DNA of 8,536 bases from IMG/VR virus record IMGVR_UViG_2737471865_000006, positions 1-8,536 of that record; one strand, given 5' to 3'. A program made the position numbers and the translations under genes. Below the pieces are notes generated by a model that saw only the letters and a list, made by a program, of their open reading frames with translations, had not been told where the DNA came from and did not search any database. Positions 1-8,536 of this stretch are shown piece by piece; within the stretch, counting starts at the first letter, position 1; each line of letters starts with the position of its first letter. The DNA comes from a virus. Its lineage: Duplodnaviria; Heunggongvirae; Uroviricota; Caudoviricetes.

Positions 1-12
1 TTCACCGGATGC

Positions 13-699
13 TTACGTTTTATGTGCATGCAGCTCATCAATAATGGCGCAGTGGATGTTCAGACCATCCAGGTTGTTTGCATCCGAGGAAAGCGGTTCA
101 AATTTTGATGCGCTCTGCTCCTGGTAAATCGCCAGCTTGTTGAAATCAAACAACCGCCCGAGTGTCGACCGGGCTTTTCTGACCATATTTTTGGCGTCTT
201 CAAACACAATTCTGGCCTGGTCACGCGTGGTGGCGGCTGAATACACCTCAGCACCGCCTTCACCATCTGCCCCCGTCATATACAGGCCGATACCCGATGA
301 CAGAGTTGATTTTGCGTTTTTACGGGCGACTTCGTTGTACGCCGTCCGGAACCGGCGCACCATCACCGGACGTCCGCTGCCATCGCTGCGCATGACGACT
401 TCCCCGGTCTCTTCATTCACCAGCGGAATGACAAAACCAAAAATATTAATGAGGATAAATACATGCCAGTCCATCAGTTCAATGGGCTGGCCTGCCAGCG
501 CCCCTTTTACATGAGGCACAAATTTGTAGAAATTCAGGATGTGCTGCGCACGGGGTTCACTGAAATAAATCCCCCGCTCTTCGCCGTACTTCAGATCATC
601 AAGAAAACGCTGGCAGGCCAGGCGGACAAATTCGCCAGCAACAATTTCTCCTGCAACAACACGTTCGGCGTAGCGGATCCCGTCAGCCACTTTTGCCAT
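13..699 (-). CDS. Terminase large subunit, N-terminal ATPase region; frame closes with TAA at 13-15 after 228 codons
   Basis: Translation has a P-loop-like motif VARKNAKST and a Walker B-like motif CAIIDELHA. ATG at 697-699 overlaps the TGA stop of the upstream small terminase gene (TGATG). Full-length large terminases are roughly twice this length. Confidence 0.75.
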   Translation of the reverse strand: MAKVADGIRYAERVVAGEIVAGEFVRLACQRFLDDLKYGEERGIYFSEPRAQHILNFYKFVPHVKGALAGQPIELMDWHVFILINIFGFVIPLVNEETGEVVMRSDGSGRPVMVRRFRTAYNEVARKNAKSTLSSGIGLYMTGADGEGGAEVYSAATTRDQARIVFEDAKNMVRKARSTLGRLFDFNKLAIYQEQSASKFEPLSSDANNLDGLNIHCAIIDELHAHKT

Positions 700-1181
700 C
701 AGTCTCTCGCTTTTAAAAGCTCCGCCAGCGGATCAACATCATCCGGTCCGGCGATATTTACTTTAGCCCGGCTTGCCGGTGACATACCAAACTCTGCAAG
801 CATTGCCCGGATCCGCTTCCAGGCATCCGCTTTCATTGCCGCCGCGGGGTGCGCCTTAATCAGTACATCACCGCTCTGCGTTTCCGTGCGGTAGGTATAC
901 CCCTCAACATCGAGTGTTTCGCAGTGATGCCGATATTCGGTGTAGGCTTCCACCAGCAACTCGAGCGCACGCGCATCAAGCTGAGAAATGATCCCTTCCG
1001 CATTCAGCTCTTCCGCCATTCGCCTGAACCAGTACTTCCCCTGAGCCCCTAAATGCTGCGGAATTTTAGGAAGACCTTTTTCATCCTTTTTAGCGGTTTT
1101 TTTGTGGTCTTTAACGGGGCGCTTTGAGGGGTTGCCTCGAATCAAATGCAGGCGTGGCGGGGTTTTCGGAGGTCCTGACAT
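699..1181 (-). CDS. Terminase small subunit, P27 family
   Basis: 160 aa; basic N-terminal region followed by ...AWKRIRAMLAEFGMSPASRAKV, typical of P27-type small terminases; sits directly upstream of the large terminase with stop/start overlap. Confidence 0.8.
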   Translation of the reverse strand: MSGPPKTPPRLHLIRGNPSKRPVKDHKKTAKKDEKGLPKIPQHLGAQGKYWFRRMAEELNAEGIISQLDARALELLVEAYTEYRHHCETLDVEGYTYRTETQSGDVLIKAHPAAAMKADAWKRIRAMLAEFGMSPASRAKVNIAGPDDVDPLAELLKARD

Positions 1182-1329
1182 AATCGGTCTTACCTATCAA
1201 TCGTTTGTTCACATTTCCAAAAAAAAGTTTTCGAACCTGCGGCGATGTGAGGAAGGGTCAGGCGGCGGTACTGAGCAGCCAGGGTTGCAGAGATTTGACC
1301 CGCCCCTCCCTTACAGATTAGAACGATTA

Positions 1330-1680
1330 TCAGTTGATGCGTTCACGCGCTGTTTTCGCCTTGTGGCATGGCCAGCACAGGCTCTGCAGATTACCGTCTG
1401 CATCCGTACCGCCATGCGCTTTCGGAATGATGTGGTCCACAGTTCTGGCTTCAACGGCTCTCCCATTGCGCAGGCAGTTCTGACACAAATGATTATCACG
1501 CTTCAGTATGCGCGCACGTATGGCATCCCATTTCGAGCCATAGCCACGCTGGTGGCGGCTCAGTCCGCGTTGATGTTGTGTCCAACCTTCGCCGCGATGC
1601 TTATCGCAGTAGCCAGAACTGTCCGTCGTTGTGCCTGCACAGCCTCGCTTACGGCATGCACGAGGGATTTGTGATGGCAT
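1330..1680 (-). CDS. HNH endonuclease, packaging-associated
   Basis: Cys-rich N-terminus (CRKRGCAG...CDKH) and HNH core (DHIIPKAHGG...N...CWPCH). Start chosen at the ATG at 1678-1680, which has an AGGAG ribosome-binding site 9 nt upstream, rather than the ORF-track start at 1716. Position immediately before the small terminase matches HK97-type packaging modules. Confidence 0.8.
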   Translation of the reverse strand: MPSQIPRACRKRGCAGTTTDSSGYCDKHRGEGWTQHQRGLSRHQRGYGSKWDAIRARILKRDNHLCQNCLRNGRAVEARTVDHIIPKAHGGTDADGNLQSLCWPCHKAKTARERIN

Positions 1681-1722
1681 AGAATTTCGCTCCTCTAAAA
1701 AATATTCTGCTCTCACCGTCGG

Positions 1723-1905
1723 TCAGTTCTGCATACACTGCCGGACACTATCAACAATTTCACAGACCTGAGAAGCTGTATCGAAAAGCTGGCGCGCCTT
1801 ATCCAGGCTGACGCAGCCCACCAGGAAAAAAGGCACCAGTATCGCTACCAGTGCCCATTTCACCGCCGTTCGCGGCATTCTGTGTGTCCAGTGTTTTCGC
1901 GTCAT
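1723..1905 (-). CDS. Small lipoprotein, 60 aa, function unknown
   Basis: Basic N-region, hydrophobic core WALVAILVPFF and lipobox LVGC; GGTGGTGA ribosome-binding site before the ATG; short Cys-containing mature part. Not proline-rich like lambda Rz1. Confidence 0.5.
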   Translation of the reverse strand: MTRKHWTHRMPRTAVKWALVAILVPFFLVGCVSLDKARQLFDTASQVCEIVDSVRQCMQN

Positions 1906-1989
1906 ATCACCACCAACGCACAGCCCAAATCAGAACAGCGACCGCCACAAGGCGGATTGCAAAGGCCGTTGCCCGAATAAAATCAGCAC

Positions 1990-2187
1990 TCATCTGTTTA
2001 AATAAATTGTTGTGTATGCAACCAGTGCAGTACAAATAATCCATGCAACTGGCGTCAGTATATGTCTGATGCCCCGGCATACCGCGATGATTTTTGCGGC
2101 ATCATCAGCCCCCTGCGGGGTGGTTTCTGCTTTTATCATCAGATCATCTCCAAATTTATCTTTCGTCGTGTTAGGCTTTACTGGCAT
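1990..2187 (-). CDS. Hypothetical small protein with C-terminal transmembrane segment
   Basis: ATG at 2185-2187 preceded by GGGGA; C-terminal hydrophobic stretch PVAWIICTALVAYTTIY. No recognisable family; coding status uncertain. Confidence 0.3.
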   Translation of the reverse strand: MPVKPNTTKDKFGDDLMIKAETTPQGADDAAKIIAVCRGIRHILTPVAWIICTALVAYTTIYLNR

Positions 2188-2229
2188 GAATGATCCCCAT
2201 GCGCATTCACAAAATGAATCCATAAACAC

Positions 2230-2261
2230 AAAGCCCCGATTGCTCCAACAACCGGGGCTTT
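2230..2261 (-). terminator. Intrinsic terminator-like hairpin downstream of the endolysin gene
   Basis: Perfect 9-bp stem AAAGCCCCG / CGGGGCTTT (2230-2238 with 2253-2261) and a 14-nt loop; T-rich flank on both strands. Confidence 0.5.
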
Positions 2262-2268
2262 GCTTTAT

Positions 2269-2646
2269 TTATCGTTTCAACTGAAAGTGAGGCCCATCCT
2301 TTAATGACCGCCACTCACCGCCCCATTCGATGGGGGTATTCAGCTCTGCGGCAGCCTGCTTAAATGCCTGCGCTATTTTCTCATACAGAGGCAAGTCCCA
2401 TGACACCTGGCTGCCAACCCAGGCAACAACATCCACCGCATCACCGGTCAGGTGGCGGCTGTTCATGGTCTGGCTTTTCCCTTCCGCGACCAGCTGTTTC
2501 TGGCGTTCTTTCGTGCGCAGCCCTTCCGTAATACCGAAATCAACCTCCGTCAGCTCCAGCGCACGGCGAACGACAGCAACCAGCTGTGGTTTAACGCCCT
2601 CCAGATTCTTTTCGCTGCGACGACTGAATCTGAATTTACCCGACAT
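2269..2646 (-). CDS. Endolysin, peptidase M15 family (phage T5 Lys-like L-alanyl-D-glutamate peptidase)
   Basis: Motifs KFRFSRRSEKNLEGVKPQL, RRALEL, SRHLTGDAVDV (His...Asp zinc-ligand spacing) and a C-terminal His match the T5 endolysin pattern as recalled. ATG at 2644-2646 has GAGGTGA upstream and lies 2 nt after the stop of the preceding gene; a GTG at 2652 is an alternative start. Confidence 0.8.
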   Translation of the reverse strand: MSGKFRFSRRSEKNLEGVKPQLVAVVRRALELTEVDFGITEGLRTKERQKQLVAEGKSQTMNSRHLTGDAVDVVAWVGSQVSWDLPLYEKIAQAFKQAAAELNTPIEWGGEWRSLKDGPHFQLKR

Positions 2647-2648
2647 AT

Positions 2649-2924
2649 TCACCTCAACAATGGAAAGATTTTTGTGACGTTCCCGCGTGCGCGTATCACC
2701 AGCACGCAGAACAGCAGGTTAAAAAACACTTCCAGCCAGCCCGTTGCTAACGGGCGACCACACAGATAGCTGAGGGGCGCAAAGGCATACAGCAGCATCA
2801 GCAACCAGGCCAGCCATGACATCAGCGGTTTATGTCTGGAATCACGACGACGATAAAAAAAGAGCGTCAGCACGATAACCGTGCATAACGCCACATTCAG
2901 CAATCCGGGAAGGTTACTTAACAT
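2649..2924 (-). CDS. Small membrane protein in lysis cassette (holin/antiholin-like), about 91 aa
   Basis: ATG at 2922-2924 preceded by GGAGGAGG; three hydrophobic segments; overlaps the holin 3' end by 11 nt and is coupled to the endolysin start. Confidence 0.55.
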   Translation of the reverse strand: MLSNLPGLLNVALCTVIVLTLFFYRRRDSRHKPLMSWLAWLLMLLYAFAPLSYLCGRPLATGWLEVFFNLLFCVLVIRARGNVTKIFPLLR

Positions 2925-3306
2925 TGCCGCCTCCTCCACCCCGCAGGCGGGAGAACAGGCCGGACACCAGCGATGCAATATCCTGCTGGTGGATGAACGA
3001 GAGAATCTTCACCGACACCACCGCCACCAGCACCGCACACAGTGCATCCGCCGATGTACCGTCATAACCTGTTTTTGATGCAATCCAGGCTGACAGCACA
3101 TGCGCACCCAGCACGCCAACGATAAACGACACCAGAAAATGCGCCGCCACACGCCAGGCTGAAAGCGCCTGCGGCATCGTTGCCACAAATAACGCCCCAG
3201 CGAACGCCCCAAACACAATCCCGAAATCCGTTCCGGTAAACAGCCCGAATACCGTCGCCCCGCCGAGCGCCGCAGCCGTACCGGAACCGGACAAGGGTTC
3301 AGACAT
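2914..3306 (-). CDS. Putative holin, about 130 aa, multi-pass membrane protein
   Basis: ATG at 3304-3306 with AGGAG 7 nt upstream; Gly/Ala-rich hydrophobic helices; first gene of the lysis cassette, directly upstream of the endolysin. Confidence 0.6.
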   Translation of the reverse strand: MSEPLSGSGTAAALGGATVFGLFTGTDFGIVFGAFAGALFVATMPQALSAWRVAAHFLVSFIVGVLGAHVLSAWIASKTGYDGTSADALCAVLVAVVSVKILSFIHQQDIASLVSGLFSRLRGGGGGNVK

Positions 3307-3320
3307 ACTTTTTCTCCTGT

Positions 3321-3346
3321 AAATAAAAAAGGGCCACTGTCGGCCC
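3321..3346 (-). terminator. Intrinsic terminator immediately upstream of the holin ribosome-binding site
   Basis: Minus-strand RNA GGGCC-GACAGU-GGCCC followed by UUUUUUAUUU (3321-3330); the holin Shine-Dalgarno begins about 4 nt after the U-run. Confidence 0.55.
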
Positions 3347-3432
3347 GTAAAAAAACAACACCCCGTCAAAGGCACCCGCAGATACCTTTTGTGTGGTGTT
3401 ATCTGATGTGATGTGCGCCGGACGTGGCGCGG

Positions 3433-3460
3433 ATATAAAAAAGGCCCGCCGCAGCGAGCC
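3433..3460 (-). terminator. Intrinsic terminator downstream of the AraC-family gene
   Basis: Minus-strand RNA GGCUCGC-UGCG-GCGGGCC (7-bp stem including one G-U pair, tetraloop) followed by UUUUUUAUAU; about 25 nt after the stop at 3486. Confidence 0.6.
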
Positions 3461-3485
3461 TGTTTTCAATGAGTGCAAAATTCAA

Positions 3486-4229
3486 TTATTCTTGAGTAAC
3501 ACTTAAACTCATCTCATTGAATGCAGCCATCCTGTAACCTGCCGGTGTAACACCAAAATAACTCCTGAATACGCTGATAAAATAAGATGTAAAATTATAG
3601 CCACACTGAGCAGCGATTCTGTTGATGGCGCAACGAGATTGATTCAACAGCATTGCTGCCATTCTCATTCTCTCTGTAAGCAACAACTCACTGAAACAGG
3701 TGCCTTCTTCTTTCAGTCTTTTTTTTAACAAACTTTCACTGATACATAACCGCGAAGACACATCTCTCAGAGTCCAGTTTGCTGCAATGTCCGTACGAAA
3801 CAATGCACTAAGCCTGTCACTAATATTGCCAATACACGCGGTCAGAAACGACGAAAACATTTTCTCTGATGAGAAAAACGCCAGACACGAAAAGGAAAGC
3901 ATTTCCGCTAAATTGTCCGTATGAATCTTTTCCTCACAAAGATAATCAATCAGGATGCCCATCAATTCTGCCTTGGGAAAACTCACGCAAAGATATCGTG
4001 GTATTTGCCGGACTAAAACTACATCCTGTTTTTCGTCTCCACACAACAGGTAACGGATAATTGTCGATTCACTGAGACTTATTCGCCGAAAACATTCCGA
4101 AAAGGGCAATAACGATCCAGCTCCCCCCCTGACAAGAAGTGCACTACCACTTTCCAGAGAGAGCTCTTTTCCTTCAAAGAGCACAACAAACGGGGAATGA
4201 ACAAAAACAACAGAACAAGCTTCATTCAT
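3486..4229 (-). CDS. AraC/XylS-family transcriptional regulator, AppY/AdiY/GadX-like group
   Basis: C-terminal helix-turn-helix signature SESLLKKRLKEEGTCFSELLLTERMRMAAMLL...QCGYNFTSYFISVFRSYFGVTPAGYR; N-terminus MNEACSVVFV resembles the AppY family as recalled. Start set at the ATG at 4227-4229 (247 aa), not the TTG at 4289. Markedly AT-rich relative to flanking phage genes. Confidence 0.8.
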   Translation of the reverse strand: MNEACSVVFVHSPFVVLFEGKELSLESGSALLVRGGAGSLLPFSECFRRISLSESTIIRYLLCGDEKQDVVLVRQIPRYLCVSFPKAELMGILIDYLCEEKIHTDNLAEMLSFSCLAFFSSEKMFSSFLTACIGNISDRLSALFRTDIAANWTLRDVSSRLCISESLLKKRLKEEGTCFSELLLTERMRMAAMLLNQSRCAINRIAAQCGYNFTSYFISVFRSYFGVTPAGYRMAAFNEMSLSVTQE

Positions 4230-4262
4230 ATCAATTGCCCTGACATTACTGGTCACAAGATA

Positions 4263-4290
4263 AGTATATATCGATTTACAAAAATACAAG
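4263..4290 (-). promoter_or_regulatory. Candidate sigma70 promoter for the AraC-family gene
   Basis: Minus strand -35 CTTGTA (plus 4285-4290), 16-nt spacer, -10 TATACT (plus 4263-4268), about 30 nt upstream of the ATG. Match by eye only. Confidence 0.35.
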
Positions 4291-4350
4291 CCGAAAGACC
4301 AGTATTCGCAACCACCAGCGCGTTTAACGTCCTGTACCGTTTTTCAGGCA

Positions 4351-4377
4351 TAAAAAAACCCGCTCAGTGGCGGGTTT
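4351..4377 (-). terminator. Intrinsic terminator between the ORF6N gene and the AraC-family gene
   Basis: Minus-strand RNA AAACCCGC-CACUGA-GCGGGUUU followed by UUUUAUGCC; palindromic, so it could act in either direction. Confidence 0.55.
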
Positions 4378-4452
4378 AAGCTGTTTGGCGTAGTAACCAC
4401 TCTTAACAGGATATTCAACTTTTTACGATCGTAAAGCGTTCGGGGAAAATTT

Positions 4453-4758
4453 TTAAAACCGTTCCAGAGTGCATACCATCGCATCGGCGGGTAGTTTTTC
4501 CGTGAAGAGGATGAGGTGCTTTGTACGCGGTGCAACTAAGTTACTTTGAGTAACCTTGTTCTTAAATTCCCGCAACTCAGCCCCTTCCAATTTGAAGTAG
4601 TGTTTCCCACAAACAAAACGCTCGGCATTGCGTGTATAGTTCACTTTGATGTTATTAGTTTCGGTGCCATAAAGTTGTGCCAAAAGCTCGGTAGTAATGA
4701 CAGGGATTTGGTTATGGGTGATCGGGGAAAGAGTTTCAACTGAGATTTGAATAGCCAT
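4453..4758 (-). CDS. ORF6N-domain protein (phage antirepressor-like DNA-binding domain), possibly C-terminally truncated
   Basis: Motif LAQLYGTETNNIKVNYTRNAERFVCGKHYFKLEGAELREFKN ... LFTEK fits the ORF6N pattern; AAGGA ribosome-binding site 7 nt before the ATG; first ORF downstream of tR'. Confidence 0.5.
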   Translation of the reverse strand: MAIQISVETLSPITHNQIPVITTELLAQLYGTETNNIKVNYTRNAERFVCGKHYFKLEGAELREFKNKVTQSNLVAPRTKHLILFTEKLPADAMVCTLERF

Positions 4759-4911
4759 AGGATGATCCTTTTTCTATGTGAATCATCACCACTGCTGACG
4801 CCAATCAGTATGGTGGTGAACTGTGCAGGGTTGGCGTAACCGGGAAAAAGGAACCGGCGCGGATCGCTCCGCCCCCACACAGCCCACCATTGAGATGTGA
4901 CAGTGCAAACG

Positions 4912-4937
4912 ACAATAAAAAAGACGCTGGCGCGTCT
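4912..4937 (-). terminator. tR'-like terminator of the short late transcript
   Basis: Minus-strand RNA AGACGC-GCCA-GCGUCU followed by UUUUUAUUGUC, about 70-75 nt downstream of the predicted pR' start site. Confidence 0.55.
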
Positions 4938-4997
4938 GTTGTCGCCTTTTTCATCCGGGACGCCAATCCCGACGCCAGATTTTGCTGGCGCGTGAGG

Positions 4998-5027
4998 AAT
5001 ATAGCCCCGGACAATGTGTCTGGTCAA
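4998..5027 (-). promoter_or_regulatory. pR'-like late promoter immediately downstream of Q
   Basis: Minus strand -35 TTGACC (plus 5022-5027), 18-nt spacer, -10 TATATT (plus 4998-5003), starting 5 nt after the Q stop. The initial transcribed region has hairpins CGCCAG-N6-CTGGCG (4973-4990) and CGGGA-N6-TCCCG, as expected for a Q-utilisation/pause region. Confidence 0.5.
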
Positions 5028-5031
5028 GCTC

Positions 5032-5418
5032 CTACATGATTCGTTCTACGTATCTGTCCATCTCCAGTCGGATATCAAGCATCATCAACATGCCATCAAT
5101 AACCCCTTCCGCTTTCTGCAGGCGCTTGCCAATACAGGTATCCGAACACCCATGCTTTCGTGCCAACCCCATAAAAGTCATTCCACCTACGTAATAATCC
5201 ACCAACAAATCGTGCAAATCCTGATTTTTCTTGTTCAACCGGGCCATACAGCCACAAATTATCATTGCATCATCATCAGAACACTGAGGGCGTGATTTCA
5301 CTTTCGGCGGGATTAATCCTTTAAAACCAGCAGCGATTGACGCCCATGACACATCTTCGTGATTGTTCGCAGCCCATGCTCCCCACCGCTCCATAACCTG
5401 CTGAATATCACGCACCAT
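5032..5418 (-). CDS. Late-gene antiterminator Q (phage 82 / QuuD-like)
   Basis: [21 protein letters not shown]...[14 protein letters not shown]...LLVDYYV...[16 protein letters not shown] pattern of Q antiterminators. ATG at 5416-5418 with AGGTGA 5 nt upstream; overlaps the rusA 3' end. Confidence 0.85.
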
Positions 5419-5779
5419 CGTTATCACCTGTAATTTCGTAAATCTTCACGCCCAACCGCCCACCAGGAACAGGCAGTCCGCGCACAATATTGATTTCATC
5501 AAACTGCTCGTCGTCTATGAGAAGTCCGGCATGCGTCAGCGCATCCAGTGGTGCCTTCAGGATATTGTCCAGGTCGCGGCGGCGCTTATCCGGTGGCTCT
5601 GCAATAATTTTTATTGCCAGCCTTCCGGACAGGTTTAATTTCAACCGCTGCTGGCGAACAATTAGTGCCACATCACGGCGATAACGCTCCCCTGCTTTTG
5701 ATACAAAATATGTGTTGCCACGACGTCGCCAGTAAGTATTCACCGTCGGCGGATAAGGCAAAACAAACTCTATACGCAT
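5408..5779 (-). CDS. rusA: Holliday junction resolvase RusA
   Basis: [16 protein letters not shown]...[29 protein letters not shown] matches RusA conserved motifs; AAGAGG ribosome-binding site 7 nt upstream. Confidence 0.85.
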
Positions 5780-5791
5780 CAGTAACCTCTT

Positions 5792-6841
5792 TTACCCGAG
5801 CACGCCGGTTGCAAAGGCGTGATCAAGAAAACGAAAAATTAAATCAACCTGGGAACCATGCTTTTCTTCGAACGCCAGCGGATCCGCATGAAGTTCGTTG
5901 TGATGTTCCCGGCACAACGGTAGCGTGAAAATATCGTGGGCCTTTGTTCCCATCCCTCCCTGACCGTGACCAATCAGGTGATGGGGATCGTCGGCTGGCT
6001 GACCACAACACGCACACGGCTGTGTCTTCACCCAGCGCGTATATTTCTCATTTACCCAACGGCGACGTTTAGGTCGCCTCATGAAAGATTCCGGAGACTC
6101 CGGATCAACGGTGATGCATACCACCGTCTTTTCCTGTGGTGGGTTCTGTTGCTGGTGGGCATGAGGCAACGGCGCAAGATTTTTTGTGCGCTGCTTCAGT
6201 ATGCTGGTGGCGGTCTGCTCTCCCGGTACGATGTCGCTTTCGCGGTACAAGGAGCGGATTTTTTCCGCACGTAACCCCAGAGAACGACGTAATACTGCCT
6301 CCGGAAGCGCGTCCGCCACCTGATTGCAGACCGCCCACCAGGATAATTCAGCCAGCGACAATTCCCGCTCCTGCGTGCCATTCATTGCATGGCGTATGAC
6401 GTCAATCATCCATGCTGACAGGTTTTGATGAGCAAGTTGCCCGAGTGATTCGGATGTCTGGTCACGCAACTGGTTGTCGCAGTGCCAGCACAACACCATC
6501 GCGCCGGTACCGTAACGATGTATGACGATTTCACTGTGATGATAGTCACCATGAGGCCACTGGCAGGATTTGACATGACGCAACAGCCAGTCAGACAGTG
6601 CCCCAGCGCCGCCAGCAGCACGAATCACCCGCTCATCGCTGAAAAATGGCAGTAATGATTTATCCTCCGCCAGCGGCTGGCGAACGGCAGGGACGACTCC
6701 GGACGGCAGACCGCGCATGCTTTTCGGTTCAGGCTCCACCAGCACTCGAGGGTTATGAAATACTTGCATGGATTCACGGCCCGGCCTAAGGACCACCAGC
6801 CCGAGTTCCGGTACCAGAACAGGTCGAAGTAATATCCGCAC
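5792..6841 (-). CDS. DUF968-like prophage protein (YdfU-like) with C-terminal Cys/His HNH-like motif
   Basis: Large nin-region ORF with C-terminal CACCGQPADDPHHLIGHGQGGMGTKAHDIF...CREHHNELH. Start proposed at the GTG at 6839-6841, which has GGAGGT upstream and follows the upstream gene's TAA by 1 nt, giving 349 aa. The ORF-track start at 6913 would overlap the upstream gene. Confidence 0.6.
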   Translation of the reverse strand: MRILLRPVLVPELGLVVLRPGRESMQVFHNPRVLVEPEPKSMRGLPSGVVPAVRQPLAEDKSLLPFFSDERVIRAAGGAGALSDWLLRHVKSCQWPHGDYHHSEIVIHRYGTGAMVLCWHCDNQLRDQTSESLGQLAHQNLSAWMIDVIRHAMNGTQERELSLAELSWWAVCNQVADALPEAVLRRSLGLRAEKIRSLYRESDIVPGEQTATSILKQRTKNLAPLPHAHQQQNPPQEKTVVCITVDPESPESFMRRPKRRRWVNEKYTRWVKTQPCACCGQPADDPHHLIGHGQGGMGTKAHDIFTLPLCREHHNELHADPLAFEEKHGSQVDLIFRFLDHAFATGVLG

Positions 6842-6842
6842 G

Positions 6843-7121
6843 TTACCTCCAGATCCGTTGCTGGTATGTGCGGGATGGGCGCGGTGGGCGTTCGGAATAA
6901 GGGAGCCTGACATAGATTATCCAGTGACGATAATCGAGGCTGAGGGCTTTCTTAATCTCGTATCCGCGTCTGCGATAGTTATGAATTAGCCATTCGGCCT
7001 GTTCTTCAGTACATGGGTCATGCTGGAACCAGTCAGATTTGAAAGTGCGGGAACGCCGCCCGTGCCTGCTGGCAAAGACGGCAGAATCATCAGAATTGTG
7101 TAATTTGGTATCGTGCGCCAT
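6843..7121 (-). CDS. Hypothetical small basic protein, 92 aa, upstream of the DUF968 gene
   Basis: ATG at 7119-7121; ORF-track start at 7202 rejected because it overlaps the terminator at 7194-7218; stop is translationally coupled to the DUF968 start. No recognisable family. Confidence 0.45.
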   Translation of the reverse strand: MAHDTKLHNSDDSAVFASRHGRRSRTFKSDWFQHDPCTEEQAEWLIHNYRRRGYEIKKALSLDYRHWIIYVRLPYSERPPRPSRTYQQRIWR

Positions 7122-7193
7122 CGGTTGTCTCTGCTGGCGCAGCAGGTGCCAGTTGTTCAGGCTGGCGTGCGAATTGTAAACCAGAATGCCAGG

Positions 7194-7218
7194 AAAAAAC
7201 AAAAACCGCCGAAGCGGG
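7194..7218 (-). terminator. Intrinsic terminator with UUCG tetraloop
   Basis: Minus-strand RNA CCGC-UUCG-GCGG followed by UUUUUGUUUUUU. Confidence 0.55.
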
Positions 7219-7417
7219 TATGCTAAAACAAACTGAAAGTAATATACCGGACTTGTAAAGGAACGATAGAATAATTATTGGATTAAACCCTGACTCAATC
7301 CAGATTTCATAGGCAACAACTACGGACTAATCATCACAGTCATGTTTGATAGACTTAGTCCACATTGGGTGAGGGTTTACGGCGTTTTCACTAATAATTT
7401 ATCGTCCAAGCTATACA

Positions 7418-7810
7418 CTACTGCCCTGTTTTAACGAAGTTTTTAAAGGAAACAACTGCCTGATAGGGGTTTGGTTGACAGCCAAACATATTATCGCAAA
7501 AAGGCTTGATGAAAATTCTTGAGGATCCATCTTCATTTGGCATTTTACTCACTTGATAAGCGAGGAATGGACTATTTGGAGAGGGATTATAAGTGGAAAT
7601 TAGCGTGTCTGTCGCCGTTTGAATTTTCCATGAGGAATTATTAGCCAACCAGAATTGCGCTCGTTTCCAATAAAAGTCACATTGCTTTTCATCATTACAT
7701 GTTAGTGGCTTCATTGCTTCTGCTTTCAACGCTGGATCGACCTTTGCTGCACACCCTCCCAACATTACTGTTGCAATCATTACACCTGCGACTAAAACAA
7801 GTTTCTTCAT
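7418..7810 (-). CDS. Secreted lipoprotein, 130 aa, unknown function (AT-rich cargo gene)
   Basis: Signal peptide MKKLVLVAGVMIATVMLGGC with lipobox LGGC; four further Cys in the mature part; lower GC than flanking genes; bracketed by terminators on both sides. Confidence 0.7.
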   Translation of the reverse strand: MKKLVLVAGVMIATVMLGGCAAKVDPALKAEAMKPLTCNDEKQCDFYWKRAQFWLANNSSWKIQTATDTLISTYNPSPNSPFLAYQVSKMPNEDGSSRIFIKPFCDNMFGCQPNPYQAVVSFKNFVKTGQ

Positions 7811-7861
7811 CTCCCTGCCCCATCAATAAAAGTTCGGTTCTCTAATAACTAGAGTTAATCA

Positions 7862-7884
7862 ACGGAAAAAACGCCGAAGCGGGT
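7862..7884 (-). terminator. Terminator-like hairpin downstream of hok
   Basis: Minus-strand RNA CCGC-UUCG-GCG followed by UUUUUUCCG, about 70 nt after the hok stop; short stem; nearly identical in sequence to the 7194-7218 element. Confidence 0.45.
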
Positions 7885-7953
7885 TAAGTGCGGGTGCGTT
7901 GAGGATGCCTGACACATCAGAGGTGGCGAGGGATTTCTCCCCCGCCAGGTCTC

Positions 7954-8109
7954 TTACTCCTCAGGTTCGTAAGCTGTGAAGACAGCGACCTCCGTCTGGC
8001 CGGTTCGGATTCGTACCTCGCAGAGGTCTTTCCTCGTTACCAGTGCCGTCACAATGACGGTTAAACAGATGACGATCAGGGCGATTAACATCGCCTTTTG
8101 CTGCTTCAT
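7954..8109 (-). CDS. hok: Hok/Gef-family type I toxin (small membrane-depolarising peptide)
   Basis: 51 aa MKQQKAMLIALIVICLTVIVTALVTRKDLCEVRIRTGQTEVAVFTAYEPEE, which matches HokD/HokC (Gef) as recalled; ATG at 8107-8109 with AAGGAG 8 nt upstream. Confidence 0.85.
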   Translation of the reverse strand: MKQQKAMLIALIVICLTVIVTALVTRKDLCEVRIRTGQTEVAVFTAYEPEE

Positions 8110-8166
8110 AGCCTGCTTCTCCTTGCCTTTCGGCACGTAAGAGGCTAACCTAGATTTGCCGTTCAT
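7954..8166 (-). CDS. mok: Mok-like overlapping reading frame (in-frame N-terminally extended Hok)
   Basis: In-frame 19-codon extension MNGKSRLASYVPKGKEKQA upstream of hok, ATG at 8164-8166 with GAGG 9 nt upstream; same arrangement as mokC/hokC as recalled. Confidence 0.55.
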   Translation of the reverse strand: MNGKSRLASYVPKGKEKQAMKQQKAMLIALIVICLTVIVTALVTRKDLCEVRIRTGQTEVAVFTAYEPEE

Positions 8167-8230
8167 AGATTGAGCCTCAGATTAATGTTAAGCGTCTTGC
8201 AGGACGCGTAATGTTAACTGGGGCTTTTCT

Positions 8231-8266
8231 CTATCTGCCTTTGGTGTTCATGCCTGAGGCAGATAG
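8231..8266. repeat. Perfect 10-bp inverted repeat in the hok leader region
   Basis: CTATCTGCCT (8231-8240) and AGGCAGATAG (8257-8266) with a 16-nt loop. Adjacent are two TAATGTTAA direct repeats (8183-8191 and 8209-8217) flanking the hairpin GCGTC-N6-GACGC (8192-8207). Confidence 0.6.
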
Positions 8267-8465
8267 CCTCAAGCACCCGCAGCAATTCTACTTAACTCAC
8301 CTCACCTCGCCAATATAAAATCAATCAGAAAGGCGATCCATAAGAACAACAGCAAGGCAATAAATTGCCATTACAGCGTAAGCATCCGGTGAAGGCGCAT
8401 TGCCGGCCGTCGTAAACCACGCCATTCTGCAGGCTCTTCCTTTATATGCAAAAGTGAGAAACCTG

Positions 8466-8536
8466 ATGGCAAAAAAAATGACCCCGGCGCAGCGACGCCA
8501 GCACTACGACGCCTGGCGCGCCTTCTCCGCTGACGA
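8466..8536 (+). CDS. 5' end of an unidentified plus-strand gene running off the window
   Basis: ATG at 8466 then MAKKMTPAQRRQHYDAWRAFSAD with no stop before the window end; divergent from hok. Only 23 codons visible; weak ribosome-binding site. Confidence 0.3.
   Translation, partial: MAKKMTPAQRRQHYDAWRAFSAD

Follow-up and report, generated by a model that had tools for sequence, protein, structure and literature searches.

How does a phage open the outer membrane of a Gram-negative host when no spanin can be recognised among its lysis genes? About 13-15% of the phages of Gram-negative hosts have no identifiable spanin, and one case has been solved, that of the disruptin (PMC6139136; 10.1101/515445). 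The question is raised again by a lysis cassette in 8,536 nucleotides of a virus of the Caudoviricetes (IMG/VR record IMGVR_UViG_2737471865_000006, positions 1 to 8,536; this whole stretch is referred to as the window). The last gene of the cassette encodes a 60-amino-acid (aa) prolipoprotein, here called Lpp, for which no inner-membrane spanin (i-spanin) partner was found and which takes the place that spanins hold in related phages. The reading preferred here is that Lpp is a partnerless outer-membrane lysis factor derived from an outer-membrane spanin (o-spanin); that it has an outer-membrane lysis role of some kind we regard as an evenly balanced proposition. The core of the phiP27-type lysis module consists of four genes, those for Phage_holin_8, Phage_holin_3_7, a soluble endolysin (of the M15 type in the window, of the GH108 type in relatives) and the 60-aa Lpp, which in the window are as follows:

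Positions 2914..3306, minus strand: Phage_holin_8 lysis membrane protein, 130 aa, with about four hydrophobic segments (Pfam PF16931, 4.7e-23; PHROG 198 holin, 5.8e-42).
Positions 2649..2924, minus strand: Phage_holin_3_7 holin, 91 aa (Pfam PF05449, 6e-22; PHROG 217 holin, 1.5e-38).
Positions 2269..2646, minus strand: M15 L-alanyl-D-glutamate endopeptidase endolysin, soluble, 125 aa, no transmembrane domain (TMD) (Peptidase_M15_4 PF13539, 7.5e-11; PHROG 465 endolysin, 6.6e-73).
Positions 1723..1905, minus strand: Lpp, 60-aa prolipoprotein, signal at residues 1-30, lipobox LVG followed by C31, mature part of 30 aa CVSLDKARQLFDTASQVCEIVDSVRQCMQN (PHROG 7528).

The window is part of the lambdoid late region of an E. 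coli prophage, with all genes of interest on the minus strand. Over positions 17-5781 its sequence shares 99.3% identity with a prophage of the enterotoxigenic Escherichia coli (ETEC) strain E21845/O/A, rising to 100% over positions 1650-2700, and the closest named phages are the Shiga toxin 2e (Stx2e) phage phiP27 and phiSTEC1575-Stx2k, with 91-92% DNA identity over the cassette. A search for the location of the whole window found 80% or more of it in no complete E. coli genome. The original prediction, made from the letters alone, had described a holin, a second membrane protein and a T5-type peptidase endolysin, followed by a terminator and lacking a recognisable Rz/Rz1 spanin pair, and in all these respects it holds. 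The Phage_holin_3_7 holin has three TMDs (residues 7-23, 33-49 and 61-77), and the start of its gene overlaps the end of the Phage_holin_8 gene. The nearest solved structures to the endolysin are the L-Ala-D-Glu endopeptidase 8q2g (5.6e-42), Serratia ChiX (5opz, 4.7e-39) and the T5 endolysin (2mxz, 8e-23). The ratio of nonsynonymous to synonymous polymorphism (pN/pS) is 0.11 for the endolysin and 0.23 for the Phage_holin_8 gene, the latter compared with 1.7 and 2.6 off frame. A gene hidden in other frames of the holins or the endolysin is unsupported (off-frame pN/pS 0.8-2.8), and no sigma-70-like promoter was found in positions 1600-3600 of the window.

No i-spanin could be assigned to this cassette. 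Open reading frames (ORFs) with a single N-terminal TMD and a periplasmic domain were sought also outside the frames first examined, and none was present in any of the three sequences scanned, namely the window, the E21845 prophage (39.5 kb) and the phiP27 genome (42.6 kb); with five Rz-type queries, tblastn likewise gave no match in the phiP27 genome or the E21845 prophage. A six-frame lipobox scan of the cassette yielded no further lipoprotein frame and none embedded, in keeping with the earlier statement that an embedded +1-frame lipoprotein is missing. The survey was extended to 114 distinct contexts of the Lpp gene taken from IMG/VR, phage records and genomes, of which 113 have an intact Lpp, and in none of these 113 does a cognate i-spanin embed, overlap or adjoin Lpp. 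Clear homology to characterised spanins was sought over the functional parts of the small proteins downstream of the endolysin, and none was found (Pfam, NCBIfam; for mature Lpp against LysC, hhalign P 0.14-0.96).

The signal of Lpp has an h-region with a hydropathy of 3.1 and a lipobox whose Gly-Cys is invariant in the family; the sorting residues are Val+2 and Ser+3, with no Asp, and do not specify inner-membrane retention. The 30 mature residues contain no hydrophobic segment or TMD. They are predicted to be helical (AlphaFold model; 83% helix in SpaninDB) and amphipathic, with a hydrophobic moment of 0.35 versus 0.18 for shuffled sequences, and carry a hydrophobic a/d stripe (L4-A7-F11-A14-C18-V21-M28). 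Over its full length (residues 1-60 of 60) Lpp matches PHROG 7528 (1.4e-37), a family of unknown function; no Pfam or NCBIfam match was found at E <= 1, and a search of solved structures gave chance Protein Data Bank matches only (PCNA, E 0.005). A word-indexed search of 5.8 billion proteins returned 132 clusters at 90% identity; Escherichia is their main source and Salmonella a lesser one, and the names given to these proteins in databases are all 'hypothetical' or 'lipoprotein'. More distant relatives, at 35-60% identity, were recovered by an exhaustive profile search of 1.84 billion representatives, and three cysteines are invariant among them. The mature part is exactly 30 residues long in most of 89 distinct sequences, with cysteines at mature positions 1, 18 and 27. 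Cys55 in the periplasmic loop of Phage_holin_3_7 was considered as a disulfide partner of Lpp and set aside, as it is also conserved with normal spanins, is Tyr in prophage Rac-SA53, and gives no specific signal.

Lpp is a real gene under purifying selection. Across 46 alleles its pN/pS is 0.17 overall and 0.13 in the mature part, against off-frame values of 0.85 and 2.0. Of 5426 complete E. coli genomes, 313 (~6%) carry the gene, among others in Stx2e, Stx2k and ETEC prophages. The first nine codons lie upstream of the Met that is taken as the start by the Prokaryotic Genome Annotation Pipeline (PGAP) and by SpaninDB, and they too have a pN/pS of 0.17. Lpp is translated from codon 1 as a protein of 60 aa, and its translation is often coupled to that of the endolysin, because the codon-1 ATG overlaps the endolysin stop (ATGA) in GH108 cassettes (L092, L136, L107 and L226).

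Wherever sequence upstream of an intact Lpp gene is available, it is the last gene of an array consisting of Phage_holin_8, Phage_holin_3_7 and an endolysin of the M15 or GH108 type. Zero to four small genes, in changing combinations, separate Lpp from the endolysin; the two abut directly in about 45 contexts, with a gap of 14-17 bases or an overlap. What follows Lpp varies, and can be an HNH gene with a P27 terminase, a gene for 115 aa, Terminase_2/portal_3 heads, ParB/TAGT genes or, in one case, Mu-like packaging genes, so that the backbones include P27/HK97-type packaging modules, Terminase_2/portal_3 lambdoids and one Mu-like phage. Two relatives of Lpp at 35-46% identity come directly after a lambda-S-type holin and an M15 endolysin, in a three-gene cassette with no i-spanin. 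Lpp thus accompanies the lysis genes and not the backbone: the holin-endolysin pairs beside it are of more than one kind and the phage backbones number four or more, as the variable downstream genes and the lambda-S-type holin cassettes of its relatives indicate.

The position held by Lpp is occupied by spanins in the sister holin clade (holins ~50% identical), which comprises phage SKA5, Salmonella 118970_sal3 and Klebsiella prophages and has the same surrounding gene order, namely DUF968, Q, holins and endolysin, then HNH and terminase. In this clade the slot behind the endolysin contains a two-component spanin in 65 of 66 distinct contexts and Lpp in none. Conversely, Rz/Rz1 or other sister-clade spanins occur in 0 of the 113 contexts with intact Lpp, and the sole Lpp copy that lies beside Rz/Rz1, in the Stx phage GER2, is a pseudogene with two in-frame stops and no start codon. 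The spanins of the sister-clade slot belong to four families: the SfV/P2 LysB-LysC type, lambda Rz/Rz1, a Klebsiella type and an embedded pair of 178 aa and 84 aa. These unrelated families alternate in one slot behind near-identical holins (L140-L219), and the 178-aa i-spanin with its embedded 84-aa o-spanin (L210, 5269-5805 and 5492-5746) was not recognised by the reference set.

Ancestry of Lpp is suggested by its signal peptide. Residues 2-24 (TRKHWTHRMPRTAVKWALVAILV) match the N-terminus of the LysC-type Rz1 of SfV and SKA5 (SRSHWSHREPRKISKWLL...) in BLASTP (2e-7) and with a hidden Markov model (HMM) of the family (19 bits), and the SfV/SKA5 Rz1 proteins and Lpp have in common a basic signal n-region (xRxHW[ST]HRxPRxxxKW). 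Judged from sequence, this n-region is descended, or was recombined, from a LysC-type o-spanin gene. The simplest history would derive Lpp from an o-spanin gene, in whole or at least in its 5' part, with the i-spanin lost along the way, and Lpp appears to combine o-spanin ancestry in the signal peptide with a novel 30-residue mature domain and no i-spanin. A by-eye resemblance (SLD...QxC.I....R) had suggested that the mature part is a LysC C-terminal domain minus the linker; this was rejected (HMM -1.2 bits, hhalign P 0.14-0.96).

Within the preferred reading of Lpp as a partnerless outer-membrane lysis factor, a narrower proposal can be made more tentatively, and we hold it to be possible, with doubts that outweigh our confidence: Lpp would be self-sufficient, and a third kind of phage outer-membrane lysis protein, a 30-residue disulfide-bonded lipopeptide with an anchor in the outer membrane only. 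Starting from an o-spanin, evolution would have removed the i-spanin partner and the proline-rich linker, and the product would open the outer membrane with no membrane fusion, being neither a two-component spanin nor a unimolecular spanin (u-spanin) nor a disruptin. In the mechanism proposed for the preferred reading itself, Lpp would be made late, from the Q-antiterminated transcript, and exported; after lipidation at Cys31, Lol would deliver it to the outer membrane's inner leaflet, as expected from Val+2/Ser+3. There its 29-residue amphipathic helix, with two invariant cysteines and a hydrophobic face, could form disulfide-linked oligomers. Once holin and endolysin have removed the peptidoglycan, these oligomers may rupture the outer membrane or make it weaker, either by themselves or by way of a host factor in that membrane, and the spanin's job would be done by one short protein that is unable to bridge the periplasm.

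Several points weigh against such a role. We infer it from position, coupling and mutual exclusivity, and to our knowledge every characterised o-spanin needs an i-spanin, as in lambda Rz/Rz1. A helix of 30 residues (~4.5 nm) is too short to reach the inner membrane; since it cannot bridge the periplasm, fusion of the spanin type is excluded for Lpp, and the mechanism proposed is without precedent. The AlphaFold model has low confidence (mean predicted local distance difference test score 65, and ~58-61 over the mature part), and the mature part has a net charge of -1 and is not cationic, unlike the disruptin. Homology to LysC covers no more than 23 signal-peptide residues: the mature part shows no similarity to LysC (hhalign P 0.14-0.96; LysC-family HMM -1.2 bits), and descent from the SfV/SKA5 Rz1 gene at the DNA level was rejected, the local score of 20 (shuffle mean 17, maximum 31) being not significant. 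The prophages Rac-SA53 (L087) and SerU-LTIIb (L088), which encode heat-labile enterotoxin II (LT-II), combine these two holins with a GH108-type endolysin, directly after which come the LT-II genes; they have neither Lpp nor a spanin, so that such cassettes can persist without either; this counter-evidence is qualified by the deletion-fused terminase gene of Rac-SA53.

Lpp can be compared with several known systems. The LysC/Rz1-type o-spanins (P2 LysC, SfV/SKA5 Rz1, lambda Rz1) and, by prediction, Lpp are outer-membrane lipoproteins encoded last in the cassette, just before HNH/terminase, and both have conserved periplasmic cysteines. Unlike them, Lpp has no overlapping, embedding or adjoining i-spanin gene, and its mature part is helical with 30 residues, whereas theirs are proline-rich with ~40-75 residues. 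Of the features of a two-component o-spanin, Lpp thus has the lipobox with an outer-membrane sorting signal and the location downstream of the endolysin; it has no cognate i-spanin, no combined periplasm-bridging length and no membership of Pfam LysC (PF23793) or Rz1. The u-spanins are proteins of ~130 aa whose C-terminal TMD anchors them in the inner membrane. Like the u-spanin gp11 of T1, Lpp has a lipoprotein signal at its N-terminus and is encoded by one gene occupying the spanin slot, but it has no C-terminal TMD and cannot span the periplasm. Colicin lysis proteins, or bacteriocin release proteins, are very small lipoproteins (mature part ~27-35 residues) that permeabilise the envelope; their likeness to Lpp is one of size class and lipidation only, as Lpp has no match to Pfam Lysis_col (E <= 1) and lies in a prophage late operon, not in a colicin operon. 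The disruptin is a cationic peptide of the antimicrobial type and is not known to be a lipoprotein. Lpp, with its lipoprotein signal and net charge of -1, is amphipathic but lacks this cationic character, although both Lpp and the disruptin phiKT gp28 (bioRxiv 10.1101/515445) are single small proteins proposed to replace spanins.

In the window, endolysin and Lpp are separated by an insert with three features:

Positions ~2228..2263, minus strand: strong terminator-like RNA hairpin between the endolysin and the accessory small genes.
Positions 1990..2187, minus strand: 65-aa accessory tail-anchored membrane protein with a single C-terminal TMD (residues 40-56).
Positions 1907..1993, minus strand: 28-aa accessory membrane peptide, MSADFIRATAFAIRLVAVAVLIWAVRWW (PGAP WP_032285253).

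The original prediction had placed only the 65-aa protein with a C-terminal anchor and the 60-aa lipoprotein downstream of the terminator; both are present, and the 28-aa gene had been overlooked. Its view that neither of the two small proteins resembles an i-spanin holds. The hairpin has a folding energy of -31.1 kcal/mol (z = -6.4; 0 of 200 shuffled sequences fold as well) and an interrupted U-tract (UUUGUGUUUAU); it is not found in the minimal cassettes, where the endolysin abuts Lpp, and comes with the insert. The 65-aa protein, for which an alternative 49-aa form is possible from an ATG at 2139, has no family match (Pfam, PHROG, NCBIfam) and is encoded in only a few of the 114 contexts; the 49-aa form is also found upstream of a canonical Rz/Rz1 pair in E. 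coli 99-3165. The ATG of the 28-aa gene overlaps the stop of the 65-aa gene (ATGA), and a single base separates the stop of the 28-aa gene from the Lpp ATG. The 28-aa peptide matches PHROG 4493 (1.5e-6) and PHROG 3246 (3e-4), both of unknown function, and corresponds to the TMD half of a family of 37-57 aa that normally precedes Rz in lambdoid phages. In lambdoid prophages, L004 and GER2, members of this family immediately precede Rz, with the same joint of a stop, one base and an ATG, and positions 1902-2142 of the window are 95% identical to a locus that has these small genes before Rz.

Hairpin, 65-aa gene and 28-aa gene together are a mobile insert between endolysin and Lpp that appears dispensable for the core, and most Lpp contexts are without the two genes. 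The basic N-terminal flanks and C-terminal TMDs of both proteins predict an N-in, tail-anchored topology with fewer than eight periplasmic residues. Neither can be an obligatory partner of Lpp, because both are mostly absent from Lpp contexts and have almost no periplasmic part. As a separate observation, a small 'B' membrane-protein family ends in ...RWW and a stop, followed by one base and the ATG of the next gene, which is Rz in some loci (L004, 3236-3238; L006, 1782-1784) and Lpp in the window (1905-1910); this looks like a recombination joint at which the downstream gene is swapped.

The phiP27 homologue of Lpp is already entered in SpaninDB as an o-spanin, together with a partner that is not conserved. 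Kongari et al. (2018) list phiP27 as having a 'separated' two-component spanin in singleton families, with the shortest total periplasmic length of their set (62 residues), the i-spanin being at 20348-20542 and the o-spanin at 20706-20861 (PMC6139136). The latter (51 aa, 30 periplasmic residues) is the orthologue of Lpp with 92% identity, and its start should be placed nine codons upstream, giving 60 aa. The listed i-spanin (20348-20542; L001, 4287-4481) is a 64-aa ORF that starts with TTG, is antisense to a 90-aa ORF and sits in an insert found in only 2 of the 114 contexts; for these reasons the partner assignment fails, and this ORF is probably not a gene partner of the lipoprotein. In the RefSeq record of phiP27, L32 (20630-20785; L001, 4569-4724) is called in the wrong frame, and the overlapping ORF of the conserved lipoprotein (20673-20861; L001, 4612-4800) is unannotated. 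Both the SpaninDB i-spanin entry and the L32 annotation need correction. According to Pinto et al. (2021), 277 of 279 Stx phages have the Rz pham; the two without it are cluster-C phages that have in common a metallopeptidase-endolysin pham, 762, exclusive to that cluster, and they are presumably of the phiP27 type. No experiments on the phiP27 lysis genes or on this cassette were found in the literature searched.

Other readings of Lpp have to be set beside an outer-membrane role. Lpp might belong to the lysis module without disrupting the outer membrane. Its part would then be to tune lysis, for instance by regulating holin timing from the periplasmic side or by modulating envelope stress, and these phages would have no dedicated outer-membrane protein. 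The position in the cassette and the coupling to the endolysin fit this as well, the mature part lacks both the length of a spanin and a partner, the LT-II prophages keep holins and endolysin without Lpp or a spanin, and there is a precedent in Lcc6 of LambdaSo, a small lysis-cassette protein that acts at the holin level (10.1101/2024.01.23.576932). We nevertheless consider it unlikely: the sister clade, with its ~50%-identical holins and once with the same type of GH108 endolysin, has a spanin in 65 of 66 contexts, so that the host envelope appears to demand one, while Lpp stands in exactly the spanin slot and never with an intact spanin. A regulator specific for one holin is made unlikely by the relatives of Lpp that follow the unrelated lambda-S-type holin. 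Lpp might also be moron cargo unrelated to lysis, inserted between lysis and packaging genes and serving as a receptor blocker or in superinfection exclusion or serum resistance, like Bor, Cor and Llp. In lambda, bor lies at the lysis/packaging junction, where morons are common; the LT-II genes of Rac-SA53 and SerU-LTIIb are at the same junction, and Lpp is small, predicted to be lipidated and of unknown function in databases. The absence of a promoter of its own among those sought, the common strand and the stop-start overlap with the endolysin speak for membership of the lysis operon instead. Lpp also follows the lysis cassette across at least four structural/packaging backbones with different tails, unlike a receptor-specific factor, and is mutually exclusive with spanins. 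We judge cargo to be quite improbable, and of the two options that the original prediction had offered, an atypical o-spanin or unrelated cargo, the former is favoured and the latter is opposed by the invariant last place, the coupling, the spanin exclusivity and the LysC-like n-region.

Two further readings keep Lpp closer to a spanin, and both are very unlikely. Lpp could be the o-spanin of a true two-component system, the i-spanin being the 64-aa ORF of phiP27 or the 65-aa or 28-aa protein of the window, and the 'separated' pair of Kongari et al. as well as their remark that an i-spanin role is in principle open to proteins with a C-terminal TMD (PMC6139136) argue for it. This is largely refuted by non-conservation: the TTG-start, antisense 64-aa ORF is in 2 of 114 contexts, about 45 contexts have nothing between endolysin and Lpp, and the 65-aa and 28-aa genes are in few contexts, also precede normal Rz/Rz1 genes and encode predicted N-in, tail-anchored proteins with fewer than eight periplasmic residues. 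Both proteins were accordingly rejected as unconventional i-spanins, as they are not conserved with Lpp and occur upstream of canonical Rz/Rz1. The idea that Lpp is a decaying remnant of a LysC-type o-spanin after loss of the i-spanin deserves, if anything, slightly less credence. It would account for a LysC match confined to the signal peptide, for a mature part shortened from ~70 to 30 residues and for the GER2 pseudogene. It is contradicted by purifying selection at the level of the endolysin (pN/pS 0.13-0.17), and the 30-aa length fixed in most of the 89 distinct mature sequences, three cysteines invariant down to 35% identity and the presence of Lpp in 313 of 5426 genomes all count against decay.

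The remaining genes of the window surround the cassette as follows:

Positions 7954-8166, minus strand: Hok/Gef.
Positions 7418-7810, minus strand: 130-aa lipoprotein.
Positions 5792-6913, minus strand: DUF968.
Positions 5408-5779, minus strand: RusA.
Positions 5032-5427, minus strand: antiterminator Q.
Positions 4453-4758, minus strand: truncated ORF6N gene.
Positions 3486-4289, minus strand: AraC-family regulator.
Positions 3442-3461 and 3331-3346: two terminator-like hairpins, upstream of the Phage_holin_8 gene.
Positions 1330-1716, minus strand: HNH endonuclease.
Positions 699-1181, minus strand: P27-family small terminase.
Positions 13-699, minus strand: start of the large terminase.

The AraC-family regulator (ORF of 267 aa; 247 aa according to PGAP) and the truncated ORF6N gene lie between Q and the holins in a segment (3486-4758) of 41-46% G+C. 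Since phiP27 carries stx2e in this slot, the regulator is probably cargo that depends on Q, in a prophage of the ETEC type. The 130-aa lipoprotein (7418-7810) has no Pfam match and adjoins the Hok/Gef toxin gene in the early/nin region; neither gene has a connection to the lysis cassette. In the tail region of the E21845 prophage (L229, 18337-18708) there is a second lipoprotein, an ORF of 123 aa with the lipobox FISAC between tape-measure and tail-assembly genes, which may be an exclusion-type moron. Three sites of the E21845 chromosome (NZ_CP076272.1) match the holin pair and the Lpp gene, so that several phiP27-type cassettes coexist in one strain.

Kongari et al. recorded 31 genomes in which no i-spanin candidate is closely linked to the lipoprotein gene, and proposed lambda complementation screens (PMC6139136). 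The Lpp family is a second directly testable case of a spanin-less phage lysis system, in E. coli itself, to which the lambda Rz/Rz1 complementation platform could be applied. Should Lpp have no such role, the virions of these widespread toxin-converting phages, and the Shiga or LT toxins, would leave the cell with no step dedicated to the outer membrane, a point of importance for models of toxin release. If Lpp works alone, a mini-lipoprotein anchored in the outer membrane would suffice for the last step of lysis; this would change the annotation of spanin-less genomes and provide a minimal scaffold for outer-membrane-active peptides.

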